Source of the DNA: Candidatus Lindowbacteria bacterium RIFCSPLOWO2_12_FULL_62_27
Lineage (GTDB): Bacteria; Lindowbacteria; 2-12-FULL-62-27
Reading direction: 5' to 3'
Length of the DNA stretch: 44,954 nucleotides
NCBI GenBank assembly: GCA_001784175.1
Contig: MFPR01000040.1
Span: forward strand, 1 to 44,954
Below the pieces are notes generated by a model. It was not told the DNA's origin, did not search any database, and was given only the letters and a program-made list of their open reading frames with translations. A program made the position numbers and the translations under genes. Positions 1 to 38,880 of the stretch are shown in pieces (position 1 is the stretch's first letter; every line of letters starts with the position of its first letter).

Positions 1-3000
1 TATTACGATCGTGTCCTCGACGCCCCCGCCTCGCACGATCACCGTCGTACGCGTGTCCACGTTCGAGCCGCGCACGATCAGGACGACCTTCGAAGATCGT
101 GGCAGCACCGTGTCGCCGCCGGCGGCTACCGCGATTGCCTTGCCTGCCGTGTCGGCGCCGTTCACGCTCACCTGCCCGCCGCTGCGCACGCTCTTGTTGC
201 CGACGGCGTCTGTCGCCGTCGCGTAGATCACATTGTCGCCCTGCGACAGAGTCACGGTCGTCGTCCATTCGCCTGTCGTCGCGCTCGCCGTCACTGTGCC
301 CTTGTCCGTGCCGTTCACGTTCACCGTTACGGTCGCGCCCAGTTCCGCAATGCCGGCCACGGTCTGCGTCGTGGCGGACACCGCAAGGTTGTCCGGGCTG
401 GTAATGCGTGGCGTCGGCGGCGCCGTCAGGTCCGCGACCACCGTCAGTTCCGCCGATACGACGTCGTTGACGGTCGGGTCCTGCGCGATCAACTTCACTT
501 TGTACGTCCCCTCCGTCGCGTAGGAGCCCGTGTCGGTCCGGCCGTTCCACGTGAAGGTGTAGGTGTCGGCGGCGCTGGGTTTGGTCACGTCCGAATCGGC
601 CCGGATCGTCCGGACGATCGAGTCGGACGAATTCAATACCTGCAGCGTCAGGAGGGCCGCCTTGGTCGTGCTGAATGACACGATTGTCTCGTCCTTCACG
701 CCGTCCCCGTTCGGGCTGATCCGCGTCTCCGTTACGGCGAAATTGACGATCTGAAGCACCGCGCTCTGCGCGCGCAACGCCGCTGTCTTGATCTCCAGAT
801 TGCCCGACAGGTCCTGCACGGTGACCTTCACGTCGTAATCGCCGTCGGCAATGCCGCTGGGGCCGGCCGTCGCCGTGTAGTCGCCCGAGCCGGCAAAGGG
901 CGGCTGGTAGACCAGGTCCTGAACTTTCGCGCCGTCTTTCTTGAACAACTCCACCCGCATGTTGCCGCCGGGCTTGGTCCGCAATTCAAAATCGAAGTTC
1001 GAGGCCAGCGCGGCGTTCGAAAACTGGCCGCTGACGCCGGTCACGGTCGCGAATTCCGTGTTCACGTCGTATACCGTGTTGACCGGGTCCGACGACGACA
1101 GCGTGACGGGCGCCGACTGGATGGTGGCGCCGGTGGCGTCCGTGCCGTTGACCTGCAGCGTCAGGCTCTGGTTGCTGATCTTCGTCTTGACGAACTGCAG
1201 CTTCGACGGTTTCGACGGGTTCACCGGCCCGAAGAGCGGCGTCATGCTTCCAAAGGCGTCCCCGGCGTTGTGGAAGAAGTTGATCCGCTCGAGGAGTTCG
1301 GAGCTTTCGACGTTTGACACGGTGACGGTGATGGTCGCGATGTCGTTGAGGTTGTCGTTGTTGGGGGAAAACGGGTTCGGCGTGACGCCGGTGATGACCA
1401 CCGTCGGCAGGATCGTGTCGAGAATGACCTGGCCCAGCTTCTGTTTCGTCTGATTCCCGCTTACGTCCGTTGCCGTGATCCAGACATCGTAGGTGTTGTC
1501 CGCCACGCCGCCGTCCCACTCGAATTTCACCTGGCCGCCGATGCGCAGCGCGCCCACCGACACCGTGTCCAGCGCGTTCTCGGGACCCGCCGCGCCCGCC
1601 GACGTGATTACGATGGTGCAGTAGGCGTTCTCCGACAAAAGAAACAGGATGTGGGCTGTGTCGTTCACGCCGTCGCCGTTGGGCGAGAAGGGATTCGGCA
1701 TGATTGAAGCGTCCGAAACGTTGGGCGAGATGATGTCGGTCGCGCCGGTGTCGTACAAGACCGTGATCGTGTCCATGGCTACGGAAACGTTTCCGGCCGA
1801 ATCGATCGCGCGCGATACGATGTAGACCACGGTCTCGCCGTACGCGCCGCTCACGCCGAGCTTGGTCCAGTTGATGTAATAGGACCACGCGGTCGTCCCG
1901 GTGGCCGTGTCAAAGGACAGCGCGCCGCCCGCGCCGCCGGTGTCCAGGCCGATTTCGACCCGCACCACGCTGGAGGTCGTGTCGCTTGATTTGCCGGACA
2001 TCGTGAAGTTCAAGTTGAACTGCTTGTTCGTGGCCGGGAACAGGATCAAGGCACTCGGCGGGGTGGTGTCGAAGGTGAATTTCCGGGTGAAGGTCCCCGA
2101 ATTGCCGGCTTTGTCCTTGCGCGTCACGCTGATCTCGTACTGGCCGTCCTCGGAGGCCGTGTCCAGGGGGTTCGACAGCGTCAGAATCACCGAATCGCCG
2201 CTCGAAGTCTGCGTGGCCGAGATCAACGCCACGCCCTTCGTCAAGGTCACGATCGACGACACGCCGTCCACGCCGGAAAAACTGTCCACCAGCGCCACCA
2301 CGAAACTGTCGATCCGTACGTTGAAGAGTTCGGCCTCGGTGATGTTGTCGGTCGTGCCGTTCCGCAGGATGTTCGCCACCAGGGGTGCGGTCGCGTCGAA
2401 GACGATGGCCGTCGTCTCCTCCGTCATCACGTTGCCGCCCTTGTCCCCCGCGCGGATGTTTACGCGGTAGACGCCGTCCGATCCGCCCGTCTTGGTCAGC
2501 GGGCTGATCAGCGTGAGGGTGGCGGCGGACACGCCGTCGTTGGTCATCGTGCCCTGCAGCACATTGCCGCCGGCGTCCAACAGTCGGATGAGAACGCTGT
2601 CAAAACTGATCCCCGCGCCCACTTCGGTGAACGTCGCCTGGATCTGCGTCACCGTGTCGGTCACTGTCGTGTCCACGGCGGTGACGGTGTCGGCGCCTGC
2701 CAAAAGCGTCGTGCGCGCCGGCGCCTGCTGGTCGAAGACGAATCCGCGGCGCTCCACTTTCTGGTTGCCGGCCGCGTCCAGGGCGGCTACGGTGATGTCG
2801 TAGGCGCCGGATGCGGGCGTCGAATCGGTGAGCCGGAAGACCAGGAGAGAATCGCCGGCGTTGCTGAGCGAGCCGCCGATGGTCTGGCCGGTCGTCAGGT
2901 TCGTCAGCGTGATGACGCTGGCGCCCAGGCTGACGCCGCCGCGGTACTTGAATCCCAGCTCGCCCGCCGTCTGGCTCGAGGAATCCGTCATCTGTACGGC

Positions 3001-3920
3001 CACGGTCTCGATCGTCGCGCCGGCGCCGAAGAGCCGGCCCTCCGAGATCGAGTCGCCGCCGCCCTGGTTGTTCACCCAGAAAAATCCGTCGATGACGCTC
3101 GGGCCTACGCTGTCCACCACAAAAGAGTCCGTCAGCGTTGTCGTGTTGCCCGCGTTGTCCTGCGCCACCACATAGATGCCGTACACGCCGTCCTTCTTGC
3201 CGTCCCCCACGACGTCCAGCACCAGGTCCATCGTGATCTGGTCGCCCGGCGTCGGGCCGTTGTTGGTCAGCGTGACGCCCTGATTGACGGCCTCGGGATT
3301 GACGAGGCGCGCGCCGCCGGTGGTCGCGTTGATGTTCAGGCCGGCGTTCTGCCCGGTTGTGCCCGGATCGACCAGCTTGACCTTGACCTTGCCGATGCCT
3401 GTCCTGACCGTCGAATCAAAACTCGAGATGATCTTCGTCGTCGCCGCCTGGCCGGGCTTTGTGTCTGATTCGACCGACAGCCAGTCCGTCGTCGTGAAGG
3501 CTGGCGGCGTGGCGTCGTAGACGAATTTGTCCGTTGTGCCGACGGCCTGCGTGTTGCCGGCGTTGTCCACGGCGGACGCCGAGATCGTGTATTCGCCCTC
3601 GCCGCCGCCCACGAGCGTGCTGTTCGGAATCCGCACCTGCCACGTGTCGAACCCGCCGCCCGATACGGAGGTGTCGATCGAGCCGCCGGCGTCCGTCGTC
3701 TTCGCCGTCGTCACCGACCCGTTCGGCGCTGTCACCTGCACGTCCACCCGAACGAGACCCCCGGTCTTGCCGGCCGGCGTGCTTCGGCCGATCACCACGA
3801 GGTTCTCCGAGGCGCTCTGCACGCTCTTGCCGTTGAACGGCTTCGCCTGGCTGCTCAGCTCCTCCTTGACCGTCGTGATCGTCGTCACGGGCGCGGCGTT
3901 GTCCAGCCGGAAAAAGACGA
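1..3920 (-). repeat. Tandem unit A2 of the giant gene (cut by the window edge)
   Basis: Begins at the 'QFVFFRLDNAAP' anchor (~3900-3925). Contains PNPFSPNGDGVND (~1660-1700), PNPFSPNNDNLND (~1345-1380) and ISPNGDGVKD (~690-720). Homologous along its length to 7745-11815. Boundaries are approximate. Confidence 0.85.
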
Positions 3921-24900: not shown

Positions 24901-27900
24901 CGTCGTCGTGTTGCTCTGGTAGTCCGTCACCTGCAGCCGGATGACGTAGATGCCCTCCGCCACCACCGCGTTGCCGTTGTCCTTGCCGTCCCACGACACC
25001 TTGTTCGCCCCCGCCGTCTGGCTGTCCGCCACCAGCGTCCGCACCAGATTCTTCGCCGGCGAAAAAATGTCCACAACCACGGTGTCGGTGTTCTCCGACA
25101 GGCTGTAGCTGATGAACGTCAGGTCGTTCTGGTTGTCGCCGTTCGGTGAAAAAGGGTTCGGCGAGGCCGAGAGATTCCCGATCACCGGGGCCTGAATGTC
25201 GGTCAGGCCCGTGTCGTACGTGATCTCGATGGTGTCGCCATAGCCCGAGTTGTTGCTCGCGCGGTCCTGCGCGCGTATCAGAATCCTGTACCGGCCCGTG
25301 TCCGAGCTGTTCGTGAACTTCGAATTCACCAGCGCCGTCGGGTCCAGCACGAAACTCCACGAACTGTACGGCTGCTGGCCCGCCGTCGTGTCGGATTCGC
25401 TCCTCACCGGCGAGTCCGTCACCAGCGGCGTCAGGTTGTAGCTGTTGCCGGTGCCGCTCGAGTCGAACCAGATCTGCAGATAGACCGCCGACAGGTTCGA
25501 GGCCTGGATGCCCGAAATGAACGTGTTGCCGTCCGGGTCGACCGCCGTGCCCAGCACGGTGATGGGCTTCGAGTTGAATTTCGTCCCGGTATTCGGAAGC
25601 GTGACGTCCGCTGTGGGCTTGGTGTTGTCCAGATTCACCACGGCCGAGTCCGGCCAGGTCGACGTGTTGCCCGCCTTGTCCTTCAAGGTGACGGGCAGTT
25701 TCAGGTTCACGTTGTCTTGAATGGCGTTCGTCGGCGCGATCGTGTGCGCCGTCCGGATGAAGGTCGCGGTCGTGACGCCGAGGTTGATCGTGCCGGTGTC
25801 GGTGTTGATCGAGTCCAGCGAGCTGTAGTTCACGCTCGTCACGATCGTGTCCGTGCCCACCTGGTCGGTCACGGTGAGGTCCAGCGTCACGACGTCGCCG
25901 TCCTTGAAGTTCGTGTCCGACGGGACCACGGCCGAGATCAGAATCGGGCCCTGGTTGTCCAGAACGATCGTGAAGGAGTCCCCGACGTTGGTGGTGTCGT
26001 TCGAACCGTCCGTGATCGTGATCGGGACGGTGCCGCTGTAATTTTCGAAGGTGTTCGAACTGTTGAGCGTGTACCTCACCGAAAACGAACAGCCGATGTT
26101 GTTGGCCGTGAACGGCCCCTGGATCGTGTAGCCGCCGCCGCTGAATTTCGAGTCGATCACCCCGAAATTCGGCGTGATCCGAACGTTCAGCGTGTCGTTG
26201 TCCTGCGGATTCACGTACACGTCGAAGTTGATGACTTCGCCCGCGTTCGCCACCGCGCCGCCGCCACGGTAGATCGTGTCCGGGTCCCGGCTCACGATGA
26301 ACCGGAAGGACGGCTTGATCGTGTCCAGCTCGATCGGGACTGTCTCGTAGGCTTCGTTGCCGACGTCGTCCTTGAAATACAGAACCACCCGCGCCGGGTC
26401 GGTGTTGCCGCTGTTGCCCGAATAGGGCACGTAGGTCATCCGGTAGGTCGTGGAGGTGTTCGCGCTGATCACGATCGTGTTGCCGTTCTGGGCCTGGAAA
26501 CTGTCCTGCAAAAAGCCGGCCTGCGGGGTGGGGTCGAAATTGTAAAAGTTCACTTCAAAGGTCGGCACGTTCGACACCGGCTCGTCCAGCGTGACCAGCA
26601 TCCGCACCGATTCGCCCGACGTGTAGGTCGTGTCGGTCACCGGCGCAAAGGCCGAGTCGGTCTGCTGCACGGTCGCCAGGGGCTTGCGCGTGTCGGCGAT
26701 GATCGGCTGCTTCTGCGTCAGGTTCTGCGTGGTCGAGATGTTCGCGTTGTTGTTCAGCGTCTCCGTGTACACGACGTCGTCCGTGTCGACCGAATAGCCG
26801 AACCGGTCGTTCACGTTCGACGTCCGGTCCACCGCGTTGCCCTGCCACGTCGTGCTCGTGGCCGTCCGGATCACCACGAAAAAGTCCGCGCCGGCCGAGT
26901 CGCTCGTGTTCACGTTCGGGACGTCTGCCACGTTGCCGATGCCGCTGCGCGGCGTCAGTTTCACCTTCAGGCCCTGCGGATTGGTGACGTCGCAGGGGAT
27001 CGGTGTGTCCGGGGCGTCGAAAACGCCCGGAATGCCCTTGTCCAGCCACAACGATATCCCGCTCGAACCGTCCGTGTCCGTGTAGCCGGCGCCGATGGTC
27101 CGCCGGAAATCGTCCAGACCGAAATTGTTCACGTCGATGAAATTCACGGTCACCGACGCCAGCCGCGCGCCGCTGTCCTTGTCGAAGGCGTCGATCCCGA
27201 TGATCGCGCGCGTTTCGGAATTCGCCGGTAAATATATGGAGGAGGTCTCCGTGACCAGATTCGTGATCAAGGTCGGGACGCGGGCGCGGAACGTGTTCGA
27301 AAGCTGGGTCTGCTTGGCGGTGTTCGAACTGTACTGAATGCCGGTCGCGGGGATCTCGAACTGGAACTGGTCGTTGAACCGCAGGCCGGTGTCGCCGTAG
27401 CCGGAGGTTTTGAACGTGATGTAAAAGTCGTTCCCGTTGTTCGTGCCGACGTCGTCGTTCGGAAGGTCCACGGGAGAGGCCGGGGTCAGGATGATCTGCA
27501 GGCCGCCGGAGATCGCCAGAAAGGACTGCGTGCCGCTGAGCTGGATCAGGCCGTTGGCGATGTCCGAGGCGTCAAAGGTCCCGTTGCCGTTGATCTCACG
27601 GTACAGCGCCATGCCGCTCGCGTTCGACACCGACGCGAACCAGTTCGCGGACACGGAGCCGTTGTAGTCCTTCACGTTGACGGTGACGCTGTTGAGCTTG
27701 ATGCCCTTGTTGGCGTCGCTCACGTTGACGCCGAAAAACGCGGTCGAGAGGCTGTTGATGTCGATCCGCTGGTCGGTCGTGGTCAGGTCCTGGATGCCGG
27801 TCGTGTTGATGTCGCCGCCTTCGATGGTCTTCGTCGCGACGGTCGTCTTGTTGTAGCCGTTCGACAGCACGATGCCGTTTTTCTCGATCGAAACCTGAAA

Positions 27901-30900
27901 GTCGTCCCCCAGATTGATCGTTACGCTCGGGCGCAGGACCACGAAGAAATCCGTCAGGTTGTCCTTCGTGTCCGGCAGGTCCGTGTCCTTGATGCCGCTG
28001 AATACGAATTTCACCACGTTGTTCGCGTACGTCACCGACTGCGCCGACAGCGCCGTGTCCTTGTCCTGCTCGAACACGCCGTCCCCGTCGTCCCGCCAGA
28101 TCGATACGCCGCTGCGCGAGTCGCCCGTCAGGTCCGCCAGGTCCGAAATGTTGAAATTCGTGGTGAGGGTGTCTGTGAGCTTTACGTTCACTTCCTTCAA
28201 AAATTCGTAGGAAAGCCCGCTGTCCGACATCCGGATCCCGATTACGGGCAGAGGCGAGTTGTTCTCCTTGAGAAGCTGGCCGGTCACCGTCAGGTCCGTG
28301 AATTCGACCGGAATGCCGAGCGTCAGAAAGTTCGTGGCGATCGCCAGGTCGCTGTCCGATTTGCCGACCCGGAACTTCAGGGCGCCCCCGATGATCCGCG
28401 CGTAAAAGGTGTCGCCGAAATTCGCCTTGGAACTTGTCCGGACCACCACGAAAAAGTCGTCCTTGCCGTCTGAAGCGTCCGGGATCGCCTCCGGCGTCAC
28501 CGGGATCAGTTTCACCGTGTCGCCGGTCCACGACGGCTGGATGATGCTGATGATCGGGTCCACGTTCGCGTCGAAAAGTCCGTCCCCGTTGCCGTCCTTG
28601 TACAGCGACACGCCGCTGGCGGTCGTCGTCGTCAGCGTCGCCAGAACGTTCGAGTCCGCGCGGCCCGGATACACGAAATTCACCGCCACCTCCTCCAGCG
28701 TCTGCGAACCGCCCGAACCGTCCGACACGTTGATCCCGATCATGTTCACAGGGTCCGACAGCGCGTCCACCAACTGGCCGGGCGTCGTCCAGTCCGTGTA
28801 GGACAGAGACGTGATCGACCGCACCGTGATGTTCTTGGTGTAGAACCGCTCGGTGTTGTTGCCCGCGGTGCCCGTGGTCCAGATGCGGCTCCGAAGGGTC
28901 TGGCCCGTGTCGTAGAACTCGATGTTCGGCGGGAAGGCCGGCAGCGCCGGAATGCCGTCGCCTTCCGGATCGATCAGCACGTTCCCGAACGTCACCTGGA
29001 AGGAATCCCCGTTGTCGGCTGTCAGCGAGGTCCGGACCACGAGGAAGAAGTCGTCGCCGAGATTTTCGGATGTGTCGTTGTCCGGCACCTGCGTGTCGAG
29101 CGATCGCTCGAAATTTAATACCGCGTATGGATCGTCCGTGCCGCCCCACCCCGGCCACACGGATTTGGCCATGTTGAGCGGTACCAGCGTGTCAATGCCG
29201 GGGTCGAATACGCCGTTGGTGTTGTCCGGATGGCCGTCGTTGTCCCGGTAGAGCGCTAGACCGCTCGCGGTCGTCGCCGCCAGGGAATTGAGGTCTGTGG
29301 TCGTGAACGACGTCCCGGCGCGCTCCAGGAAAAAGGACAGTTGATTCAGCGTCACCGGCTCGTTCCCGCCCCGGTCCGTCACGTTGAGGCCCACCACCGC
29401 CAGGGGGTCGCTCGCCTCCGGGACCTCCTGGCCGCTCAAGGTCACGTCTGACAGGAACGTCAGCACCTGCTGGCGGTAGGAGCCGACAGTCCCGGAACCG
29501 CTCGTGACGGCCGGGCGGACGCTCTTGCCGTGGCCGAAAATCACGCCGCGATCCGGAATCCCCAGATGAAACGTGTCTTCAAAATCGATCGTCTTCGACG
29601 TGAGAATCGCCACCCAGAAGCTGTAATCCGCCGGGGGCGGGGTGCCGTCCACGTCCATCGTCTTCGTCGAACGTAGCGTGTAGCCGTTCTGCAGGAAGAT
29701 GGTACAGCTCGTGGCGCCCGGGCCCCACACGGTCTGCGCGGGGGACAGCGGCAGAAGCACGTCGGCCCCCTGGCTGAACGTCAGGCCGCCGTCACCGGAA
29801 TTGTTCTCCCAGATCGATATGCCGCTGAACTGGTCGCCCGTGATCGGGCGAAGATCCGTGCGCGGATCGAACCCCTGCGAGTCGGGAAACTGGATCACGA
29901 GTCCGTCCATCGTCGTCGCCAGGTGATTGCCGTCCGTCGGGCCGCCGATGATGCGCATCGCGAATACCAGCGTCGGATTGAAATCGAGGGACGTCAGGTC
30001 CGTCATCAGCGATACCGGGCTGCCGAAAAAGGCGTCGACGTTCCGCTCCAGGGCCCCCGTCAAACTCCCCGGCGTCAGCGAACGCGGCGTTTCCATGACC
30101 TCCTTGATCTGGCCGCCTTGGTTGTTGCTCGGCGCTACCTGCGCGCTCGGACCGATCACGGCGGAGTCGTCGTTGGAACCCGGGGGGTTCGCGAAAACAT
30201 TCGGAATCTTGAACCCCACGCCCGTCGGCGGGATCGTGCATATCCACTCGTCGCCGTATCCCACAAGGCCGGTGTCCCAGCCGCCGCCGGTCTTGACGGC
30301 GACGAAGTAATTGTTGTTCCCGGACGCGTTTCCGGCGTAGGTGGTCGGCAAATCGCGCGTGGCCGAGCCGCTTAACTGAAAGATCATCGTACACGACTGG
30401 CTCGCGTCCAGCGGCGTCGACAATGTCGGATGGCCGCACAGGTACCGCGTGCCGTCCCGGTCAAATTCCTGGATGAAGGTGTCAGTGCCGAAATCGAACG
30501 ATCCGTTGCCGTTCGCGTCCCGGTACAGGCGAACCCACTCGAAATCCCAGTAAGGTTGAAAATCGCCCACGAGTCGCTGGAAGACCACCGTGACCGAATC
30601 GATCTGGCCTGTGCCGGCGGCGTTGAGACCCACCAACGAAAATTCCGAGTTCGCGCCTGCAATGTCCGGTACTTGGCCGTCCGTCAGGCCATCGATGGTA
30701 AAGGCCACGCTCACCGTGTTGGTCGCGTTGGCTGCAAAAACGGAGTTGCCGCCGCCGGAAGTGCCTCCCGTCCAGTTGACATCCACAGCCGTGATGGTGA
30801 ACTGGTCGTCCTGGTCCGCCAGACCGGCAACATAAATCCACGAGCCCAGCGTCAGGCTTCCGTTGACCGGAATCGTGTTGCCGCCCACCAGCGTCACTGT

Positions 30901-31317
30901 CACGTTCCCGGGGCCGCTGCGCGTGTTCGACCCGTTGTTCGTCGTGTTGTTGGCGTCGGTGATGACAAACGTGTAGACTTCGCCCGCCGCCACGTTGTTC
31001 ACGCTGGTAAGAGTAAACTGAATGTCGGTTACGGTCACGGGGTTCGTGCCGCTGCTGTTGTTCAACGTGATCGTGCCCCACCGGAATGCCTCCCCGGGCA
31101 TCGCCGCCTGGTTCGAGATCACCAGACTCGTGATCGACCCGCTGCTCAGATTCGCCGCCGCCGGCCCCGCCAGGATCGCCTGTACGAGAAGAATGCACCC
31201 GATCAGAACGCAACCGAATTCTCCTCCTGCCTTTCTCACTGCCTTTCTCCCCCCTCCCCCCTTGTGGGGGAGGCTGGGTGGGGGGTTTTTGGGGTGTCTT
31301 TCATTGGGCTGTCTCAT
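1..31317 (-). CDS. Giant secreted/surface repeat protein (>=10,400 aa; Ig-like and FlgD-Ig-like domains), 3' end beyond the window
   Basis: Manual translation of the minus frame with codons at 3k-2..3k reads MRQPNERHPKNPPPSLPHKGGGGRKAVRKAGGEFGCVLIGCILLVQAILAGPAAA|NLSSGS... (Sec signal, AxA site) and is still in frame at position 1 (...GGGVEDTIVI). No minus ORF in the track uses this frame between 1 and 31317, as expected if it has no stop. Possible starts are ATG 31317 (ATGA overlap with the upstream stop) or GTG 31239. The protein is T/S/G/V/D-rich with many 'D.AGN' Ig-like strand motifs and 'PNPFSPNGDG.ND' FlgD-Ig-like motifs. Confidence 0.93.
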   Translation of the reverse strand, partial: MRQPNERHPKNPPPSLPHKGGGGRKAVRKAGGEFGCVLIGCILLVQAILAGPAAANLSSGSITSLVISNQAAMPGEAFRWGTITLNNSSGTNPVTVTDIQFTLTSVNNVAAGEVYTFVITDANNTTNNGSNTRSGPGNVTVTLVGGNTIPVNGSLTLGSWIYVAGLADQDDQFTITAVDVNWTGGTSGGGNSVFAANATNTVSVAFTIDGLTDGQVPDIAGANSEFSLVGLNAAGTGQIDSVTVVFQRLVGDFQPYWDFEWVRLYRDANGNGSFDFGTDTFIQEFDRDGTRYLCGHPTLSTPLDASQSCTMIFQLSGSATRDLPTTYAGNASGNNNYFVAVKTGGGWDTGLVGYGDEWICTIPPTGVGFKIPNVFANPPGSNDDSAVIGPSAQVAPSNNQGGQIKEVMETPRSLTPGSLTGALERNVDAFFGSPVSLMTDLTSLDFNPTLVFAMRIIGGPTDGNHLATTMDGLVIQFPDSQGFDPRTDLRPITGDQFSGISIWENNSGDGGLTFSQGADVLLPLSPAQTVWGPGATSCTIFLQNGYTLRSTKTMDVDGTPPPADYSFWVAILTSKTIDFEDTFHLGIPDRGVIFGHGKSVRPAVTSGSGTVGSYRQQVLTFLSDVTLSGQEVPEASDPLAVVGLNVTDRGGNEPVTLNQLSFFLERAGTSFTTTDLNSLAATTASGLALYRDNDGHPDNTNGVFDPGIDTLVPLNMAKSVWPGWGGTDDPYAVLNFERSLDTQVPDNDTSENLGDDFFLVVRTSLTADNGDSFQVTFGNVLIDPEGDGIPALPAFPPNIEFYDTGQTLRSRIWTTGTAGNNTERFYTKNITVRSITSLSYTDWTTPGQLVDALSDPVNMIGINVSDGSGGSQTLEEVAVNFVYPGRADSNVLATLTTTTASGVSLYKDGNGDGLFDANVDPIISIIQPSWTGDTVKLIPVTPEAIPDASDGKDDFFVVVRTSSKANFGDTFYARIIGGALKFRVGKSDSDLAIATNFLTLGIPVEFTDLTVTGQLLKENNSPLPVIGIRMSDSGLSYEFLKEVNVKLTDTLTTNFNISDLADLTGDSRSGVSIWRDDGDGVFEQDKDTALSAQSVTYANNVVKFVFSGIKDTDLPDTKDNLTDFFVVLRPSVTINLGDDFQVSIEKNGIVLSNGYNKTTVATKTIEGGDINTTGIQDLTTTDQRIDINSLSTAFFGVNVSDANKGIKLNSVTVNVKDYNGSVSANWFASVSNASGMALYREINGNGTFDASDIANGLIQLSGTQSFLAISGGLQIILTPASPVDLPNDDVGTNNGNDFYITFKTSGYGDTGLRFNDQFQFEIPATGIQYSSNTAKQTQLSNTFRARVPTLITNLVTETSSIYLPANSETRAIIGIDAFDKDSGARLASVTVNFIDVNNFGLDDFRRTIGAGYTDTDGSSGISLWLDKGIPGVFDAPDTPIPCDVTNPQGLKVKLTPRSGIGNVADVPNVNTSDSAGADFFVVIRTATSTTWQGNAVDRTSNVNDRFGYSVDTDDVVYTETLNNNANISTTQNLTQKQPIIADTRKPLATVQQTDSAFAPVTDTTYTSGESVRMLVTLDEPVSNVPTFEVNFYNFDPTPQAGFLQDSFQAQNGNTIVISANTSTTYRMTYVPYSGNSGNTDPARVVLYFKDDVGNEAYETVPIELDTIKPSFRFIVSRDPDTIYRGGGAVANAGEVINFDVYVNPQDNDTLNVRITPNFGVIDSKFSGGGYTIQGPFTANNIGCSFSVRYTLNSSNTFENYSGTVPITITDGSNDTTNVGDSFTIVLDNQGPILISAVVPSDTNFKDGDVVTLDLTVTDQVGTDTIVTSVNYSSLDSINTDTGTINLGVTTATFIRTAHTIAPTNAIQDNVNLKLPVTLKDKAGNTSTWPDSAVVNLDNTKPTADVTLPNTGTKFNSKPITVLGTAVDPDGNTFISGIQASNLSAVYLQIWFDSSGTGNSYNLTPLVTDSPVRSESDTTAGQQPYSSWSFVLDPTALVNSKFTNSSDTGRYRILIRAQDRASNNSGYGDTIEITYDTGLTDIQAPVIGNLSASPNPFSPNGDNQNDLTFISYSLSENTDTVVVDIFSPAKNLVRTLVADSQTAGANKVSWDGKDNGNAVVAEGIYVIRLQVTDYQSNTTTETTSVRVDLTPGLVNITGLSPNPFSPNGDNLNDRTTLSFSVSNLPTSTFIGTVRITATGAQSPFTVNAPVFTSGPFTIPSPTELVWIAKQASGSAAITLSLQGTAANGTSQTGNAVSIPATTQPNDILAILSTWGSVTGVTGPGGTSTTSFDLSFDLYTKTGEIAINVRNASGASVGSLTTVPAFTGNGSYTSQWAPAAGTTPDGDYTIVVQVVDDAGNFVQSQTTVTVQTAILQVTNVQLTPTNGTISPNGDFVVDELFIAATTTKSAQLAIKIFQTSDDTIPVRTIVADTSVRAAGTYTVTWDGKNDSGVFVTSRDYVIKITAYDPNDNLTIAFDTKATIDLVSPDAPRITEADKTQNVSQTSISGIAEAGSTVELFRDATSLGLTTIATSPNGTFSFATVPLVQGYNNIYAKSKDGVGNVSTPSGSKITWTSTDSKGISADTTHLKLPRVSKINIFINKAPDTQTVLQVWGSLAGSIVRDSVVVDTKAAVNRLIAAQSGQTFDRFDTVFLGGVSGYGVDSAIEVTLRADEEFVQYNVDVSAPAPSITSIKEEVSGQVSPLNGRSPGVSAEDVQVSGRSAPAGAAAGLVRVDVTVRAPNGAVTTVTTADAGGLLDTTSSSTFDTWQVRIVNSVLVGGGEGIYQLTVATADNAGNSQSIASSFIYDVSPPQFIAAGAITVDDTAAGSKVLSAFDTSVRSSVGKVRVRTQDPGTANQIAGLNLNQTTIGARLADPAGAAVGIVRSNNGVDEVAMDLVFKVGSDGKRDGVYGVYLVAQDNAGNTTTLTDSFVVDNVGPSVIGGVFYVNNRGGTEVIAEGQVFNATTFIDTIAVLLTDSSSQNSSDIGFRFSGGVNMAASSISVTNKTTLQSIAGVVSSAGDSLLIFWLSDSTPASSGDFEVQVSAFDQFGNQRTEKRTFRYDAQAPFFSITPDTGAVVNRLDNIVVRVGDTVTGLTSAELRWIWDDNGDSQFTEAVTLLSLNASGNPGQIDTSNLSLGRPTNGSADGDYALWVRVVDKGGNVFEDTKIVRYDTVKPTRQDFLVQRGSGGVFSTIPVTATLNAQGQTIFVATSAISDSIVFAGVDMFDTVLNPNGRVSDIAKYNETTVVFFYNASNQKVGSFEFEPVADTMGRRLVGGNILDAANEAGVCTIVVTAVDAAGNFMAETATFVFDKDNPQVKIVTPPQGSQFNIGPIAVTGTASDTTGSVARVYMRVYVPGTDFGASEAVARMDSLASGAASWLGTLNFAQLGDTLGDWKIVAYAVDAAGNTGALSDTLTIRYDTGITDVTAPVISDAVVDPAVFGANGAAIKYVLSEAVDTAFVVITTSGGAAVDTIPTSAGLPQGAGQNAIVWDGRDASGNIVLDDTYSFEIRVTDKSGNKANVTVKGIKDQVPPVITLTQSPIPNPFSPAPTTPGQDDVTTIRYTTVGAANSRVEIYAKTTGALVSISATVLGDVTDTIVQWNGGGAPTPPDGLYRIVVTAVDGNGLTAQVSNEVEIDVTPFTLTGVAINPTVISPENGDGVNDFTVISYRVDGVKDSATVLFQVFTNPSDTAAVYNDSLVVNVFPASKTFTFRGKTDTGGILSSKAVRTYYWKVTGIDGTNGQVLTASGNVTIDNLRPVPPQIVTPDNLAVSVATQTVNGSAEPGAQVVLTVNGVDLAPVTSNPATGQWTTTVNIVQGDNIIYATAVDSTGNRSVRSGQQVSLNGVGQNGVSIGVESNGDPALPRASKAVLIIRGSNVDSQMAVILRGGGLDDTITLDTGTLVGQRVVGNLDMTRLDTIGVKTGDSDPAGLSVEIRAEDQYLFFRLDVSAPDATITTVREEASGQQSPINGKSAQDPTEDVLVIGRSSPPGVTGGLVRVDLTITLPNGTKSKVSTTDFPATKGNPDTNAGAFDTWIVRIPNATLIAGGDGDYKLEATTIDNAGNQDTSPALTFTFDQTSPQFSATNKIVVEADTGPSATNLPTKTLTTFDTAVRTGVGKVKVRFTDPAAPVSGQSNSGLDLNLTTSGARLVDPQGADVGIVRANNNVDEVTMDLVFDITSDGKRDGVYGIYVVVSDKAGNSDTAVDSFVIDAVGPSVIGDNFYRINNPGGFTVITEGQVFSGSDFFDSVAVYLTDSSSQTAGDLGFLYNGGVNLTASSLNMTNKTTLQSIGGVIRTVSDSLLMFQLTDSTPVSGDIEIQVTAFDRSGNQRITKRSFKYDAQGPFYAQSPETGAIVNRLDNVVVRVGDTITGVSAAQLRWIWDENGDNIFNEPATLITLNASGVAGQIDTNTLSLGRVTNGTQDGDYLLWVRVVDKAGNVTEDTKIVKYDTVRPTRVNFLVEHGASASVMETLPVTALTDTQGRTVFVATKTFGDSVTFVGVDLLDSAPSPNGKVTDVSAYNDTTRVVFVNAAGQAIGTFEFDTATDTMGRRLVGGNILDAAAEAGVCTIVVMAVDAAGNFMAETATFIFDKDAPQIRIVTPAQNAQFNVGPIAITGVASDTTGKVARVFMRVYVPDTAFGQIRKQKQDSLAIGSASWVGSVNFVLLGDTPGDWQVVAYAVDDAGNTSALSDTRTIRYDTTITDVTAPQISDATVDPGVFGAGGATIRYVVNEPIDTGLVVIKTSGGVFVDTAPTNGTPQSAGQNAIVWDGKDASGNLVADDTYFFEIQVTDRNRNRATITVSGVRDVVPPVVTLSQSPIPNPFSPAPVTPGEDDATTLRYTTIGAVTSRVDVYAKSTGAFVRQIAARFGDIADTPVTWDGAGAPTPPDGLYRIVVTAVDVNGLTAEVSSEVEIDVTPFSLTNVLLVPTLLSPENADGVSDFATLSYVVNGAKDSATMRFQVFANPTDTTAVFTDSVTVNVFPATKTFTFRGKSDTGGILSGGATKTYSWKLTAVDGGNGQILTASGNLDIDNSRPAPPQIFTSDNLAVTTTNQAVSGSAEPGAQITLNLNGTDLQPPVTANLQTGLWTAAVTLAQLAQGDNVIYATASDSAGNKSVRSGRQVTLTGVGDTGGVSIGIESGGDSVLPRPSKAVLIVRGSTVDTRTTVIVRSGALEDTIVIDTGTQVGQRVAGSVEFARLDTISVKSGDSDAIGLSVEVRADDQFVFYRLDNVAPVPTIVSAKEELSGQSSPFNGKSAQSASENVLVTGRSTPAGATGGLARVDVTITYPNQATTTKVSTTDFTGAGNPDTAVSGGAYDTWIVRIPNSTLLAGGDGDYTLVADAFDGAGNKATAAAFTFTLDQTSPTFATTGKIIVLDTGTGSKTLTNFDTTVRTAVGAVRVTLSDPAAPDASQKNAGLDLNVTTGGSRLVDPKGANVGIVRSNNAPTPGDQITMDLVFDVATDGRKDGVYGVYIAASDNAGNTAVLTDSFVIDSVGPAVVGSNYYLNNRGGGSTISEGQIFNATSAIDSIVVQLTDSSSQVSSDLGFGFSGGVNLPATSIAMTNKTTGQSVAGLVSSAGDSLLIFWLTDSTPVSGEFEVQVTAFDQGGNQRTEKRTFKYDAQAPFFTIAPDTGAKTSRLDNILVSVGDTITGVSTDTPPQLRWIWDENGDSLFTEPATPITLNASGTAGQIDTSVTSLGRVTNGTQDGDYALWVRVVDKAGNVVEDTRIVRYDTVKPTRIDFLIVHGTSASITETMPVTAVTDTQGRTVFVATRAYSDSVIFVGVDLADSSPSPNGRVTDVAAYNETTTVTFYNASNQKVGTFEFEAIADTMGRRLVGGNILDAAIEAGVCTIVVTAVDAVGNFMSETATFVFDKDNPQVKIQSPAQNAQFNIGPIAVTGAASDTTGSVARVYMRVYVPDTAFGQVRKQKQDSAVTGTASWVGTVNFTQLGDTLGDWQIVAYAVDAAGNTSVLADTLTIRYDTSITDVTPPVISDATVDPGVFGANGATIKYVLSESADTAFVVIKTSAGAAVDTVPFVGIAQGAGQNAVGWDGKDVNGNLVLDDTYTFAITVTDRSGNKSIVTVSGIKDVLPPILTLTQSAIPNPFSPGVTPGEDDVTTIRYTTVGAVSSRVDVFAKSSGILVATLVPAGITGATVSGDATDTQVVWDGSGQSDGLYRLVVTAVDGHGLTSEVSSEVEIDRTPFTLTGVAISPTVISPENADGLSDFSIISFTANGAKDSATIRFQVFANPSDTIAVFNDSVTVNVFPAVKTFTFRGKTDTGAVLSVKATKTHYWKVTAVDGNGHVLTAGGSVEIDNLRPAAPQIFTSDNAAVSAGLQTVTGQAEPGSQVVLNVNGVDAGTVTANLINGLWTATVSLSQGDNIIYGITVDTVGNRSVRSGRQVSMAGVSDTGVQIGIESNGDTVLPRASKVVLIVRGSNVDTRTTVIVRGGGVEDTIVIDTGTLIGQSVVGSVDFTRLDTIGVKSGDSDATGLSLEVRADDQFVFFRLDNAAPVTTITTQKEELSGQVRPFNAKSVQSASENILVLGRSTPAGKTGGLVRVDVTVTAPNGSVTTVKTTDAGGSIDTSVSGGGYDTWQVRIPNSTLQGGGEGEYTITAAAVDNAGNTQPLPASDKFIYDATPPAFVSVGAIDVTADTGVGAIPSKTLSSFDTTVRTGVGKVKVKMTDPGTVQVSQLSISATTTGARLVDPAGSNIGSTLSNNAVDEVTMDLVFDVAGDGRKDGVYGVYVVAQDNAGNTTTLTDSFVVDSVGPSVVGGFFWVNNQGGGDSIAEGRLFGPGATIETIAVQLTDSSSQVAGDLGFKYRGGVSLAASLITLTNKTTNQSAGGTLSSVTDSLLIFQLADSTPASGVYEILVAAFDLAGNQKTEKRGFTFDQQAPSRTALIVGSETVTVSDTIVTDTVSAVKVTFTEVGSGLSFDSVVIRLVDANNNALQGTMSNDGVSAATLTLVTTLSKTGGSDGIYRVNIRAADQANNVMTEETTTIMYDVTPPAVLSILRNGQPDDITDSRILNVRVDSFVVQLVDSFSGVDGLSAIVTLTKGVTTLTATQTTAGDSVILALSNPLDTTPEDGPYILSITRKDRAGNSGTFTRTFTFDTTAPSSAFVYPSSNQKFNSNITISGTARDTTSSISRVEIGFDTGGAGGVLQFDTATGAQNWSYFIDWSKLGVKSQYGETFVILVTRAVDAAGNAEVPADTLTIFYDTGASDITPPYVSNVSITPNPFSPNGDGVNDTADIVFVLSENASCTLLVLSTLSTDLKNALDTIAVNVSKSAGLVKFSWDGGLLDNTYDIWIVTVDASRNQITQKLGRIRLDTILPVVTITSISPSPFSPNNDNINDATTMTFSVAGVQGEDIGTLSVSDLATQQGSTNLGTTGNFTLPRTLVSPARVFFVGSGQMPANGDVNIQVVGIDENGNSINPTVSLPANGTISTSQKFSKIDAISVASVTGASQTAWDGKTGIPIIVFSSEGAVTVRAEDPSGNVISGQDNLTFSPVFKGDGTYFVTFPQGSTTLSDGVYVLVVRAQDNSGNVTVEKADVTAASSRLQINFFAVTEGRISPNGDFIKDESIISFTTTKPALLTLQILNAADSVVRTLKSDTLATQPSAAGPYAFTWNGKSDAGLVVTEGTYRAKLSALDPTLNDVVTSDTTIVVDFTKPAPPQIFTSDNLAVSVANQAVSGSADPGASVTLNLNGTDVGTVTANASTGLWSATVSNAQGDNVIYATATDAVGNKSVRSGRQVNLAGVSDTVGVGIGLESGADTVLPRASKVVLIVRASTVDTRTVVVVKGGAQEDTIVLDTGTTIGQRVVGTVEFSRLDTIVVKSGDSDASGLQVEVRAEDQYVFFRLDNVAPKPSITTIREEASGQVSPFNGKSTLDATEDVLVIGRSNPAGVTGGLARLDVTVTLPNKTTVTVKTTEFPGINNPDTNAGAVFDTWVARILNSTLVAGGDGDYQVVAVAIDNAGNLDSSTVSTFTLDQTAPAFASTAAIVVLDTAAGSKTLTSFDTSVRTAVGKVKLKFADPAPPVTTQNNAGVDINTTTSGARLIDPAGANVGIVRSNNGPTPGDEVTLDLVFDVAGDGKKDGVYGVQVVVSDNAGNTATLRDSFVIDSVGPTVVGSNFYLNERGSGATISEGQIFGATQVIDSIVVQITDSSSQVTTDLGFKFNGGVNLSGSSISATNKTTGQSVSGVVSSAGDSLVIFWLTDSTPISGDLEVQVTAFDQSGNQRTEKRTFKYDAQLPFFTISPDTGAKMNRLDSITVRVGDTVTGVSSDTPPELKWIWDENGDSAFTEPATTLSLNASGVAAQIDVSSLSLGRATGGTQDGDYALWVRVTDRAGNILEDTRILRYDTVKPTLQDFVLVHGSSASVTETIPVTKTGSGLQTVHVATRAYNDSVVFAGVDLVDTVTSPNGRVTDVTGYNDTTTLTFYNAANQKVGTLVFEAGADTLGRQLSGGNILDLASEVGVCTIVVTAADAAGNYMSETATFVFDKDLPQARIVTPAQNTQFNIGPIAVTGAASDTTGSVAKVFVRVYVPDTDMGQITKLKQDSQASGAASWIGTINFTLLGDTLGDWKIVAYAVDAAGNTGALSDTLTIRYDTGITDVTAPQISDAVVDPGVFGAAGAAIKYVLNETVDTALVVIKSSDGTFIDTVPTNGVTQGAGQNAIVWDGKDVNGNLVLDDTYSFEIRVTDRSGNKTSVTVKGIKDVLPPVLTLTQSPIPNPFSPSPATPGQDDVTTIRYTTVSAVSSRVEVYAKTTGALIATLVNVPGDVTDSLVTWTGSGAPTPPDGLYRIVVTAVDGHGLTSEASSEVQIDITPFSLTGVSITPATISPENGDAQNDFTTIRFTSDGAKDSATVLFQVFANPSDTTAVFNDSVTVNVFPASKSFIFRGKTDTGGILSPNATKTYYWKVTAIDGGNGQILTASGNVTLDNERPAPPQIFTPDNLATSAAGQTISGSVEAGALVTVNVNGSDVATVTSNATTGAWSATVGIVQGDNVVYATATDAVGNKSVRSGGEVGVNGVDTAGKAIAVSAGGDTVLPRASKVALIVRGSNVDTRTTVIVRGGGLEDTIVIDTGTLIGQSVVGPIDFTRLDTIGVKSGDSDATGLSLEVRADDQFVFFRLDNAAPVTTITTVKEELSSQAKPFNGKSVQSASENLVVIGRSTPAGKTGGLVRVDVQVTAPNGSVTTAKTTDAGGSIDTSVSGGGFDTWQVRIPNSTLVGGGEGEYTISASAVDNAGNTQAVGTTDKFVYDATPPAFTTTDWLSVESDTKPGQAATTKIISSFDSTVRTGIGKVKVKLVDPGTTGQNAGLNINATTGGARLVNPEAVNQGVTLTNNGPTPGDQITMDLVLDVVGDGKKDGVYGIYVVAQDNAGNTTTLTDSFVVDSVGPSVIDGFFWVNNQGGGDSISEGRLFGAGATIETVAVQMTDSSSQTAGELGFKYRGGVSLGASVITLTNLTTGQTIGGSLSNAGDSLLVFRLTDSTPASGAYDITVAALDAAGNQKVERRGFVFDQQAPARTTLLAGADTVTAVDTTVTDTVTQIQATFTEVGAGISFDSVLIRLLDAGGNVLQGTMTNDGVSAATLTLISPLTKTGGSDGVYRVNIRAGDKGGNVMTEETTAIVFDATAPLVANILRNGTTDNITEAELFNVRIDSFVVALVDSFSGVDGVSSIVTLTKGVALISATQTSSGDSVILTLSNPLDTASEDGQYEISVTRKDKAGNSGTFTRKFTFDTTPPSALILFPATNKQFNLNFTMSGKSSDTTSSVVRVEIGLDTGGAGGALSFDTATGTTAWSYYINWTKLGVSGAYGETVVYIVSRAIDSAGNVSVAMDTITVLYDTGATDIISPNVSDASIMPNPFSPNGDGVNDTAHILFLLSENAYCTIVITSAGAAGPENALDTVSVGALRIGGQVKFEWDGGVADNTYDVWITATDVSGNQTKQKLGQVILDTILPTVVITGVTPNPFSPNNDNLNDIATITVTVSNVESSELLERINFFHNAGDAFGSMTPLFGPVNPSKPSKLQFVKTKISNQSLTLQVNGTDATGATIQSAPVTLSSSDPVNTVYDVNTEFATVTGVSGQFSNAALASNFDFELRTKPGGNMRVELFKKDGAKVQDLVYQPPFAGSGDYTATAGPSGIADGDYDVKVTVQDLSGNLEIKTAALRAQSAVLQIVNFAVTETRISPNGDGVKDETIVSFSTTKAALLTLQVLNSSDSIVRTIRADSDVTKPSAADTYTFTWNGRTDTGSYATEGTYKVKLIAQDPTVNDVVSAELTVVADLTAPPTPRITSPDNLAVSATTQTVAGIAELGATVTVNVNGTDKGTVTASATTGEWTTTVTLSQGDNVIYATATDAVGNKSVRSGGQVSVNGADTAGKAIAVAAGGDTVLPRSSKVVLIVRGSNVDTRTTVIVRGGGVEDTIVI
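3921..7745 (-). repeat. Tandem unit B4 of the giant gene (~3.83 kb)
   Basis: Anchor QYVFFRLDNVAP at ~7715-7750. B-specific motifs WIWDENGDSAFTE (~6400-6435), PIPNPFSPSPATPGQDD (~5070-5120) and ISPENGDAQND (~4755-4785). Confidence 0.85.
7746..11815 (-). repeat. Tandem unit A1 of the giant gene (~4.07 kb)
   Basis: Anchor QFVFFRLDNAAP at ~11785-11820. A-specific motifs PNPFSPNGDGVND (~9570-9610), SPSPFSPNNDNIND (~9255-9290) and ISPNGDFIKD (~8570-8600). Confidence 0.85.
11816..15650 (-). repeat. Tandem unit B3 of the giant gene (~3.83 kb)
   Basis: Anchor QFVFYRLDNVAP at ~15620-15660. Motifs WIWDENGDSLFTE (~14300-14340), PIPNPFSPGVTPGEDD (~12975-13020) and ISPENADGLSD (~12645-12675). Confidence 0.85.
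15651..19500 (-). repeat. Tandem unit B2 of the giant gene (~3.85 kb)
   Basis: Anchor QYLFFRLDVSAP at ~19470-19505. Motifs WIWDENGDNIFNE (~18150-18187) and PIPNPFSPAPVTPGEDD (~16820-16870). Confidence 0.85.
19501..23300 (-). repeat. Tandem unit B1 of the giant gene (~3.8 kb)
   Basis: Divergent anchor EFVQYNVDVSAP at ~23265-23302. Motifs WIWDDNGDSQFTE (~21983-22020), PIPNPFSPAPTTPGQDD (~20650-20700) and ISPENGDGVND (~20333-20365). Confidence 0.82.
26700..30660 (-). repeat. Seven degenerate ~150-190 aa repeats in the N-terminal region of the giant protein (SG.S[LI][YW]RD.NG[DN]G.FD ... DFFVV.RT)
   Basis: Core motifs: LYRDANGNGSFD (~30490-30528), SGISIWENNSGDG (~29790-29826), SGLALYRDNDGHPDNTNGVFD (~29205-29265), SGVSLYKDGNGDGLFD (~28572-28617), SGVSIWRDDGDGVFE (~28068-28113), SGMALYREINGNGTFD (~27570-27617), SGISLWLDKGIPGVFD (~27017-27063). 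Each is followed by an [DN]-aromatic-aromatic strand such as DFFVVVRT. Confidence 0.8.
31249..31286. repeat. REP-like C-run/G-run palindromic element
   Basis: CCTCCCCC (31253-31260), CTTGT loop, GGGGGAGG (31266-31273) form a perfect 8-bp stem, followed by CTGGGTGGGGGG. This resembles widespread bacterial 'CCCTCCCCC..GGGGAGGG..GGGTGGGG' dispersed palindromes. It reads PPPSLPHKGGGG in the giant-gene frame. Confidence 0.6.
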
Positions 31318-38129: not shown

Positions 38130-38840
38130 CTACAGCCCCGATTCCCTCTTCACCGCCTTCTCCACCATCTCCCTCACTCCTTTGTCGACCGCGAACACCA
38201 AATCCTCGTACTCGTCGCCCTTCTTCACGCTCGGCCACGCCATCCATATCCCATCCTTCCCATCAATCAGCTTGCATCCCTTGATCGTCACCGCATTGTT
38301 CAGCGTCACATCCGCAAATCCCTTCACTTTGCTGTGCCCATCCAGCTCCTTCCACCTGACTTCCGTCACCTTCAACGACCCAGGCTCCGCTCTCCCCTTC
38401 GCCCTCCCGTCTTTTATCGCATCCTTGATCTGCTTGGCTATGCTCTTATCCTCTAGAAACACAATATTATACTCCCTGCCGCCCTTCCCCGGACTCTTCG
38501 GAAAAAACAATAGCTCTCTTCCATCCTCCTCTCGTATCTCCAAGCCCTTGAAAACAATAGCCCTGTTTAGCGTTGCCGAATATTTGCCGCCCTTTTCCTT
38601 ACGAACCTCCGTAACCGCCAACTCACTCACCGGCTCATCCGATTTCGACTCCTTGCCCGCCGGCTCCCCCGCTTCCTCCTTGGCCTCCGGCTCTGCCGCC
38701 GGCTCCTCCGCAACGATTGTTTCTTTCTTGGCTGCCTGTTCTGTTTTACCGCAGGAAACCACAAACGGGACCAGACCGAAAGTTATTACAGTTATCGCTA
38801 CGACTGGTGAAAATTTCTTCAGCACGGAAAATTTTTTCAA
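38130..38840 (-). CDS. Lipoprotein with two tandem SpoVG-like domains (236 aa)
   Basis: TTG start at 38840 with SD AAGGAGGT 7 nt upstream. MKKFSVLKKFSPVVAITVITFGLVPFVVS-C is a lipoprotein signal, followed by an E/K/A/P-rich linker. The C-terminal domain LKVTEVRWKELDGHSKVKGFADVTLNNAVTIKGCKLIDGKDGIWMAWPSVKKGDEYEDLVFAVDKGVREMVEKAV follows the SpoVG pattern (xVTDVR...A.ITL....V..I.VIDG..GLFVAMPS.....GEY.D). The upstream domain LAVTEVR...ATLNRAIVFKGLEIRE...LLFFPKS...GREYNIVF...IAKQIKDAI is a degenerate copy. Confidence 0.85.
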   Translation of the reverse strand: MKKFSVLKKFSPVVAITVITFGLVPFVVSCGKTEQAAKKETIVAEEPAAEPEAKEEAGEPAGKESKSDEPVSELAVTEVRKEKGGKYSATLNRAIVFKGLEIREEDGRELLFFPKSPGKGGREYNIVFLEDKSIAKQIKDAIKDGRAKGRAEPGSLKVTEVRWKELDGHSKVKGFADVTLNNAVTIKGCKLIDGKDGIWMAWPSVKKGDEYEDLVFAVDKGVREMVEKAVKRESGL

Positions 38841-38847
38841 GGGACGG

Positions 38848-38855
38848 ACCTCCTT
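38848..38855 (-). promoter_or_regulatory. Shine-Dalgarno site of the SpoVG-like lipoprotein
   Basis: AAGGAGGT on the minus strand, 7 nt before TTG 38840. Confidence 0.75.
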
Positions 38856-38880
38856 TTGTTGTATAATGGTACAGACCCCG

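Follow-up and report, generated by a model that had tools for sequence, protein, structure and literature searches.

A stop-free frame of more than 10,000 codons in a Candidatus Lindowbacteria genome as the probable first part of the gene of a giant immunoglobulin-like surface filament

What kind of protein is encoded by a bacterial reading frame that runs for more than 31 kb without a stop codon and then off the end of its contig, and how could such a product be brought to the cell surface? The question is raised by the window analysed here, namely the 44,954 nucleotides at positions 1-44,954 of contig MFPR01000040.1 (C40) of the genome of Candidatus Lindowbacteria bacterium RIFCSPLOWO2_12_FULL_62_27 (G000; 44 contigs, 94% complete). 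In a first-pass annotation the minus strand of this window had been read as the gene of a very long surface filament built of immunoglobulin (Ig)-like domains. The analysis described here demonstrates that the giant gene is real, and that it very probably continues on another contig of the same genome (C2) to give a chain of at least ~33,230 residues. On balance, its product is best regarded as a one-gene adhesive surface filament, exported by a route that is similar to type IX secretion (by the system abbreviated T9SS), with its own barrel protein as anchor. This account brings together features that are directly observed, namely open frames under purifying selection, the domain content, a sorting-like terminal domain, a barrel gene overlapping the stop and conserved flanks. 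The frame of the window is:

1..31317, minus strand: 5′ part of the giant gene, 10,439 codons, open at the contig end (open reading frame, orthologue and repeat evidence)

The minus-strand frame from position 31362 to position 1 contains no stop in 10,454 codons, and from the ATG at 31317 it encodes 10,439 residues (1.086 MDa, isoelectric point 4.3), so that the uninterrupted frame and the product of more than 1 MDa that had been proposed are both borne out, the latter by the window part alone. The other five frames contain 498, 57, 29, 154 and 449 stops over the same stretch, with an expectation from composition of ~281 (P about 1e-124). That the open reading frame (ORF) was missing from the list of frames supplied with the window is explained by the fact that an ORF search reports it solely if frames may lack an end, and, since position 1 of the window is the end of C40, the gene is cut by the assembly and not by the window alone. 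The GC fraction per codon position is 0.57/0.48/0.88. In all four comparisons made, with the orthologue of a same-family genome (G003) and among three pairs of repeat copies, mismatches are most frequent at position 3 and least frequent at position 2 (for example, 0.26/0.18/0.47), a pattern that argues for purifying selection on the giant ORF.

The assembly was examined by aligning contigs from four of ten public runs to positions 1-20000. Contigs from four of the four runs (three studies) cover all 30 bins, and long aligned pieces, such as 70-2989 and 7652-10983, show 0 differences to the window, an agreement that is not fully independent because one run is possibly the source sample. Mis-assembly is unlikely because exact repeats inside the ORF do not exceed 63 bp; between the ORF and C2 they reach 110 bp. 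A depth peak at 5337-6003 is not interpretable as copy number. An extra, unassembled repeat copy was suspected from variant contigs at 4011-4024, 5592-5601 and 5911-5959 and was rejected, as all match known copies; the short variant contigs checked (nine clusters) all derive from other repeat copies on C40 or C2. The frame could still be imagined to be an artefact, either of repeat mis-assembly or of high GC, which does yield long shadow frames here: a plus-strand frame of 2,664 codons at 10285-18276, likely to be mis-called as a gene, and a plus-strand ORF of 2,512 residues at 10741-18279 are both antisense shadows over the giant gene and were dismissed as genes. Codon-position GC, the substitution pattern, the orthologues, the Pfam domains, the short exact repeats and the agreement of contigs from four runs largely refute such an explanation, which we consider extremely improbable. 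Thus, the giant gene is real.

Within the window, the encoded chain is composed of the following parts:

31153..31317, minus strand: Sec-type signal region, residues 1-55 (by eye and hydropathy)
26719..30702, minus strand: seven tandem modules of ~165 residues, residues 206-1533, with a CBM93/PF14873-like predicted fold
23848..26700, minus strand: Ig-like region, residues ~1540-2490, with FlgD_ig/CHU_C-like and Big domains (Pfam)
1..23847, minus strand: about six tandem units, each with 1,280-1,355 residues and ~10-11 beta-sandwiches, copies 60-80% identical at the protein level, continuing on C2
4318..8157, minus strand: youngest unit of the array (residues 7721-9000), with 89% identity to C2:104859-108692 and 73% to its best match in the window

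The chain is acidic, with much Thr, Val, Gly, Ala, Ser and Asp and hardly any Cys (28 in the 32,570 residues of the C40 and C2 parts together). Pfam scans, which cover both halves of the giant gene except ~325 residues of C2 and the gap between the contigs, found Big_13, FlgD_ig, Big_3/6/7 and CHU_C-like domains in the window part, and a model of 1,200 residues of one repeat unit is all-beta with about ten sandwiches (pLDDT 70, the first 105 residues being poor); the Ig-domain build of the original proposal is recognized in both. The repeat array starts at about residue 2490, was still in mid-repeat at the window edge, as had been noticed, and is missed by Tandem Repeats Finder because its period is ~3.8 kb. 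Residues 1501-2000 are single-copy in G000 and 70% identical in G003. No catalytic family scored above its cut-off in either half, bar one 30-residue repeated His-Me match that was judged spurious; the Pfam matches His_Me_b4a2, DUF4625, Y_Y_Y and Ret2_MD consist of short stretches that recur, and they were dismissed as functions. Neither SecA DEAD nor peptidase domains were found by these scans. The motif D-(S/T)-(A/I/L/V/M/T), which we take to be the O-glycosylation sequon of Bacteroidota, is ~2.2-fold enriched (169 against 78 expected in the window, 377 against 166 on C2), counts in which repeat copies are not independent.

The N-terminal modules of ~165 residues gave no match in Pfam and NCBIfam searches (none to PF14873 at E up to 0.1), and Foldseek with a two-module model returned just generic Ig adhesins. 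The AF2 model of two modules (pLDDT 88) is closest to the N-terminal domain of a Bacteroidetes sialidase (6MNJ, residues 24-187; Z 11.9, rmsd 2.7, 138 aligned residues), and sialidase N-domains head the list of 48,161 chains (Z 11.9 and 9.5); in one Atlas cluster, PF14873 occurs in 13% of members. The N-domain type of NanH is described as the glycan-binding CBM93, Pfam PF14873 or BNR_assoc_N (PMC9472817). Judged from the models, the modules probably adopt the CBM93-like fold of sialidase N-domains, with glycan binding as a putative function. They share the predicted fold with the Tannerella NanH-type sialidases (PDB 6MNJ, 8GN6; PMC9472817), but differ by the lack of a Pfam match, 20% identity, an extra Asp/Gly-rich loop and the occurrence of 21 copies over the two contigs without a sialidase. 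A profile of the module retrieved 445 proteins at E up to 0.001 (1.84 billion representatives). As a side observation, the module is common in large secreted proteins of varied C-termini, 13 of a set of 150 (P0014-P0163) ending in a T9SS-like sorting domain, and its named carriers include Hydrogenedentota and Omnitrophota.

The probable continuation of the gene is found on the minus strand of C2 (G000:C2:110683..43824), in a frame that is open at its 5′ end. It starts with 148 residues, followed by an 18-N gap with overlapping flanks, 22,131 residues and a stop; the C2 frame as called has 22,286 codons, of which the initial 149 ‘residues’ are out of frame, shifted by the scaffold gap, and the true piece is that of 148. 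Among the 44 contigs, all 33 matches of a repeat-unit query and all 14 of an N-module query lie on C40 and C2 only, and the family has one N-terminus and one C-terminus in G000, as well as one N-block and one C-block in G003. Phylogeny of 21 repeat segments places window copy 8481 together with copies 2 and 1268 of C2 in the youngest clade (support 98/95), so that the copies most alike lie on either side of the break. In G003, the upstream gene shares one contig with 3,280 residues of the N-terminal half, collinear with the window chain and 56-75% identical to it from about residue 400 to 2,600 (32-41% before), and a second contig carries 4,462 residues of the C-terminal half with the barrel gene. 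The end of the G003 N-terminal contig is 74% identical to the first 148 residues of C2, the next-best copy reaching 54%, and used as a template it spans the gap with 519 residues, the repeat register giving 517, for a gap between C40 and C2 of ~1.55 kb. Two complete distant homologues, P0015 (3,910 residues) and P0017 (3,971 residues), combine the N-block (30% over 2,217 columns), a vWA block and the terminal domain in a single chain. The order of giant C-terminus and barrel is retained in G003 and in another relative, G002 (73-74%); a scan of genome contigs returned a single locus, on a G002 contig, and when the C-terminal 667 residues served as query, no orthologue of greater length was found, which is weak evidence.

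What speaks against the join is that 0 of the contigs from the four runs cross window position 1, and that C40 and C2 are without exact end overlap; with no bridging read or contig, it is a connection that we infer. The two frames could instead belong to two paralogous giants, each with its other end unassembled, in which case the window gene would have at least 10,439 codons. Such an arrangement would agree with the missing bridge and overlap in a genome that is 94% complete, in 44 contigs, many of them broken inside giant genes. It would require, however, that two further unique ends be missing where only one N-block and one C-block are present in G000 and in G003; moreover, all variant contigs checked match known copies, and a single gene agrees with the repeat phylogeny, with the template taken from G003 and with the homologues that are single chains. 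We consider two paralogues unlikely, and that the C40 and C2 frames are one gene very probable. The joined minimum is 10,439 + ~518 + 148 + 22,131 − 3 = ~33,230 residues (~3.5 MDa). The earlier estimate of at least 10,400 codons therefore stands as a minimum, with a gene that is probably three times larger. The rarity attributed to bacterial genes of at least 10,000 codons has to be revised, since, in a 2026 preprint, predicted proteins that reach 10,000 residues number 3,650 and those that reach 30,000 number 348 (10.64898/2026.06.07.730766).

On C2 the chain gains additional repeat units, another 14 CBM93-like modules (21 in total) and five vWA domains. After the signal region there is no hydrophobic window above 1.9 in either half, and the last 200 residues contain no LPXTG motif or membrane helix. 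The absence of RTX repeats seen in the visible part holds for both halves, with 0 matches to the nonapeptide (GGxGxDxL-type). The anchor or export signal that had been placed beyond the window is most likely the end of the C2 frame, where a T9SS-like domain is followed by the gene of a PorV-family barrel. The terminal ~85 residues match FlgD_ig (E 7e-4) and TIGR04183 (E 0.012); the type B profile CHU_C reached 17.6 bits against a cut-off of 27 on the last 2,285 residues, best at the terminus, and found no match in the last 107 residues alone, and TIGR04131 was not among the profile matches listed. The barrel gene, of 518 codons, starts in overlap with the giant-gene stop and encodes a protein of the PorV/PorQ family (PorV_fam, E 1e-12) with a periplasmic tail, no Cys outside the signal region and eight close orthologues (56-75%). 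With a profile made from terminal domains, 36 ORFs of G000 end in a T9SS-like sorting domain, 35 of them flush with the stop, and 15 of the 18 PorV-like barrels of the genome start within 400 nucleotides of the stop of a sorting-domain ORF. The model of the complex between terminal domain and barrel scored 0.73, with 0.00 for the best of three controls (contact agreement at least 65%, partner pLDDT at least 63), which passes a mark reached by 116 of 157 solved pairs and by 2 of 215 mismatched pairs; the pass may come from likeness to solved complexes of PorV with C-terminal domains only. A SprA-like gene (1,826 residues, G000:C20:84307-89784, TIGR04189, E 1e-19) is present in three of the four genomes of the family, and SprA-like genes occur in 63 of 151 sampled genomes (34 over the cut-off). 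Motifs of the LpxA, LpxC and BamA types in G000 point to a diderm envelope.

Side by side with these findings, the protein might be made but not sent out whole, remaining periplasmic, forming a sheath or being cut up, with a C-terminal domain that is an ordinary FlgD-type Ig domain. FlgD_ig/CHU_C-like domains do recur internally throughout the chain, the sorting-domain scores lie under the cut-offs and no Gld motor was found. Yet the terminal-domain profile picked 36 ORF ends, 35 of them flush with the stop, 15 of 18 barrels follow one, the complex model passes and no peptidase domain was found by Pfam, so that such a fate appears quite improbable.

Several results nevertheless weigh against an exported, barrel-anchored filament and have to be set beside it. 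The three matches of T9SS type all lie below their curated cut-offs: the sorting domain reaches 15.6 bits in TIGR04183 against a cut-off of 23, the barrel 48 bits in PorV_fam against 90, and the SprA-like protein 69 bits in TIGR04189 against 200. SprA_N (PF14349) was not found in G000-G003, phmmer against PDB gave no match of solved structure to either the SprA-like or the barrel protein, and the CBM93 likeness of the N-terminal modules is one of fold alone. The motor subunits were not found either (GldL in 0 of 5 genomes, GldM in 0 of 151 and 0 of 61, GldN in 0 of 151), in searches in which no positive control rang. The Bacteroidota translocon is described as requiring this motor for cargo release (PMC10994853, PMC12618676), and the text of PMC11285876 gives T9SS genes as absent outside the FCB phyla. 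The only GldK match is partial, under the cut-off and likewise obtained in three control genomes. GldM and GldN were found in none of the 151 sampled genomes that included the 63 with SprA-like genes; as positive controls failed to give a signal, also among 61 additional genomes, the absence of a Gld motor is not established. Moreover, we know of no precedent for a 3.5-MDa chain that is almost whole in the periplasm before its C-terminal signal can be recognized. The host forms its own four-species phylum and does not belong to Bacteroidota; by RpoB, three relatives are 79-87% identical, and the other 116 among the matches listed, from mixed phyla, are at most 59% identical.

With these reservations, and by analogy with the mechanism described for Bacteroidota (PMC10994853, PMC12618676), a path for an exported filament may be proposed. 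The chain would cross the inner membrane through Sec with its N-terminus first, and its Ig domains would fold in the periplasm, where, because the export signal is made last, a folded chain of ~1 micrometre would have to be stored. The last ~85 residues would then dock on the loops of the dedicated PorV-family barrel within the SprA-like pore, as in type IX secretion of Bacteroidota, and the barrel would leave the pore together with the chain and remain as its outer-membrane anchor in the manner of SprF/PorP, held in the envelope by its periplasmic C-terminal domain. The N-terminal CBM93-like cluster would become the distal, glycan-binding tip, with the vWA domains and the further CBM93-like modules placed along the shaft. 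Tandem duplication of a unit of 1,280 residues may set the reach, from ~3,900 residues in distant homologues to at least 7,740 in G003 and ~33,000 here; scaled from SprB and GhpA, the filament length would be ~1.0-1.35 micrometres. Its likely job is to hold the cell, without movement, to surfaces or cells coated with polysaccharide. As the carrier is without the cysteines of SprF and flagellin-like genes are present in G000, gliding is improbable, and adhesion of a static kind is preferred. The boldest form of the proposal, in which a motor-less SprA/PorV-type pore, in a phylum other than Bacteroidota, would export in one piece an unbroken, helix-free chain of at least 33,000 residues, first stored in the periplasm and then threaded out, is tentative and in our estimation rather doubtful. 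The motor-less set would appear to be common, with SprA-like genes in 63 of the 151 sampled genomes and GldM and GldN in none. Among the papers listed by literature searches, none has a title or abstract opening that reports an SprA/PorV system devoid of a motor in lineages of this kind.

The closest described counterpart is the SprB-SprF pair of Flavobacterium johnsoniae, with which the present system shares a giant signal-peptide protein, a C-terminal domain of sorting or sorting-like type and a dedicated barrel gene directly downstream; the barrel of SprB stays bound as anchor (PMC12618676, PMC10994853, PMC9870892), as is proposed here. SprB has 6,497 residues and measures about 200 nm (PMC12635249, PMC9870892), whereas the joined chain described here would be about five times longer, with a sorting domain nearer type A/FlgD and under both cut-offs. 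The carrier is of the PorV/PorQ family with an added periplasmic domain, rather than of the PorP/SprF type, and the twin-cysteine link to the track described for SprF (PMC12635249) is missing from it. A further difference is that GldLMN were not found in G000, again with no positive control ringing, and that the host is not a member of Bacteroidota.

A second comparison is with the grappling hook GhpA, partner of GhpB, of Aureispira (5,898 residues, 240 nm, heptameric and disulfide-braced; bioRxiv 10.1101/2024.01.29.577165; PDB 9FLP, 9FLY), which has in common with the present chain, as proposed here, a signal peptide, a distal adhesin module, a long Ig stem, a T9SS sorting domain and a downstream barrel; the GhpA gene, likewise, had been divided between two contigs. 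GhpA fragments are at the top of the Foldseek list for the repeat unit, and giant proteins of Omnitrophota have been linked to predation (10.1101/2023.11.21.568195). Thus, the same exported filament might serve as an appendage to catch prey or hosts, as GhpA does, possibly in multimeric form. The structural match to GhpA, however, is generic (TM 0.16-0.19, rmsd over 90), no CBM93-like or vWA blocks are named for GhpA in the preprint text consulted, the braced GhpA stem contrasts with the scarcity of Cys in this chain and no lytic domain was found in the Pfam scans of both halves, no search aimed at a killing apparatus having been made. We consider a catching appendage unlikely, and attachment by a static adhesive filament is retained as the preferred function.

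Giant proteins of Omnitrophota are similar to the present one in size class, in their uncultured groundwater hosts and in the breakage of their genes by short-read assembly. Forty-six such genes exceed 90 kb, and all full-length proteins are reported to have numerous membrane helices, most with SecA DEAD domains (10.1101/2023.11.21.568195), unlike the present chain, which lacks both and ends in a T9SS-like signal. The terms type IX, FlgD and immunoglobulin are absent from the text of that paper, supplements aside, as are T9SS, type IX and PorV, with the same limit, from the text of the 2026 preprint (10.64898/2026.06.07.730766), which names a tandem-repeat scaffold class. Another relevant group is that of the RTX/T1SS (type I secretion) and LPXTG giant adhesins, families with a long Ig-repeat extender and distal ligand-binding and vWA domains. 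These features are shared, whereas the present chain has a Sec signal and no RTX nonapeptide, LPXTG motif or C-terminal membrane helix.

The start of the giant gene and the gene that precedes it comprise two further features:

31248..31295, minus strand: G/C-rich hairpin repeat in the first 26 codons (−23.7 kcal/mol)
31314..37751, minus strand: coupled upstream gene, 2,145 residues, with a signal-like N-terminus and PLD-like, lamin-tail and fn3 domains

A signal-like segment, as claimed in the first-pass annotation, is present, and contains the sole hydrophobic window above 1.9 of the chain, which starts at residue 30, with A-x-A at 53-55; cleavage would follow P-A-A-A, and a signal is likewise present in G003, P0015 and P0017. 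The ATG at 31317 overlaps the stop of the upstream gene (ATGA), and an alternative GTG start at 31239 would yield a conventional 29-residue signal peptide, as in the G003 orthologue. The odd Pro/Gly-rich N-terminus is due to the hairpin repeat, which lies in frame within the signal region and of which the genome holds 18 similar copies (7 mismatches or fewer over 35 bases).

The upstream gene also precedes the giant gene in G003 (66%). Its product has one H-x-K-x4-D motif and a second motif without Asp, and no C-terminal sorting domain, nor was one seen by eye in the G003 counterpart. In a further genome used for this comparison (G016), the upstream region is made of two genes, the second with a terminal sorting domain, again before the giant-gene homologue. 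The upstream protein may be surface-bound by riding on the giant chain, which is an idea at this stage. On the other side of the gene, 3′ of the barrel and on the same strand, ComEA- and ComEC-like genes (named by eye) are found at L004:8835-11541 in G000:C2 and at L026:16559-19296 in G003, where an inverted transporter-like gene stands between barrel and comEA.

From this neighbourhood the filament could be seen as a scaffold for the foraging of extracellular DNA, in company with the translationally coupled PLD-like, lamin-tail protein and the ComEA- and ComEC-like genes that come after the barrel in both genomes. Several points argue otherwise, namely that the chain is acidic (isoelectric point 4.3) and without a DNA-binding family, that one HKD motif of the upstream protein lacks its Asp, that the inverted gene of G003 interrupts the arrangement and that the neighbourhood may be mere synteny. 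A role in DNA foraging is, in our opinion, very improbable, and a role in adhesion remains the one adopted here.

Other observations concern the surroundings of the gene. The window from 41535 to 44954 (plus strand) and G000:C40:45000-103000 encode a long series of secreted proteins, among whose domains are glycosidase-like ones and those of the F5/8 type C carbohydrate-binding family, which suggests that a polysaccharide-use region adjoins the giant gene. At 38130-38933 (minus strand), in a region of lower GC, an ORF of 267 codons encodes a C-terminal SpoVG domain (E 5e-17) after a signal-like stretch; a sigma-70-like site (10/12) lies at 38909-38881, within its first codons, and the promoter and terminator scan as a whole gave results at chance level. 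The other side of C40 likewise ends in an open gene, a separate one of 6,091 residues. Overall, 11.6% of G000 is taken up by 40 coding-like frames that reach 2,000 codons or more, and many of its contigs are broken inside such frames.

The size of the chain is no record, and its novelty is tempered by the fact that giant genes are now counted in hundreds and that pairs of cargo and carrier are established in Bacteroidota; we found no description, however, of an Ig fibre that is this long, lacks membrane helices and has its export tag at the C-terminus. If the join is true, the gene would encode a titin-sized bacterial protein constructed unlike the giants of Omnitrophota, namely as an Ig and lectin-like fibre with no membrane helices and no enzymes. 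It would also be an extreme test for type IX-like secretion, with 3.5 MDa to be held and exported, the signal coming last and no known motor seen, and, if export of the whole chain is true, it would be about five times the longest characterized type IX cargo that we found in print (SprB). Together with its homologues it would offer a natural series of repeat duplication between fixed ends, from ~3,900 to ~33,000 residues.

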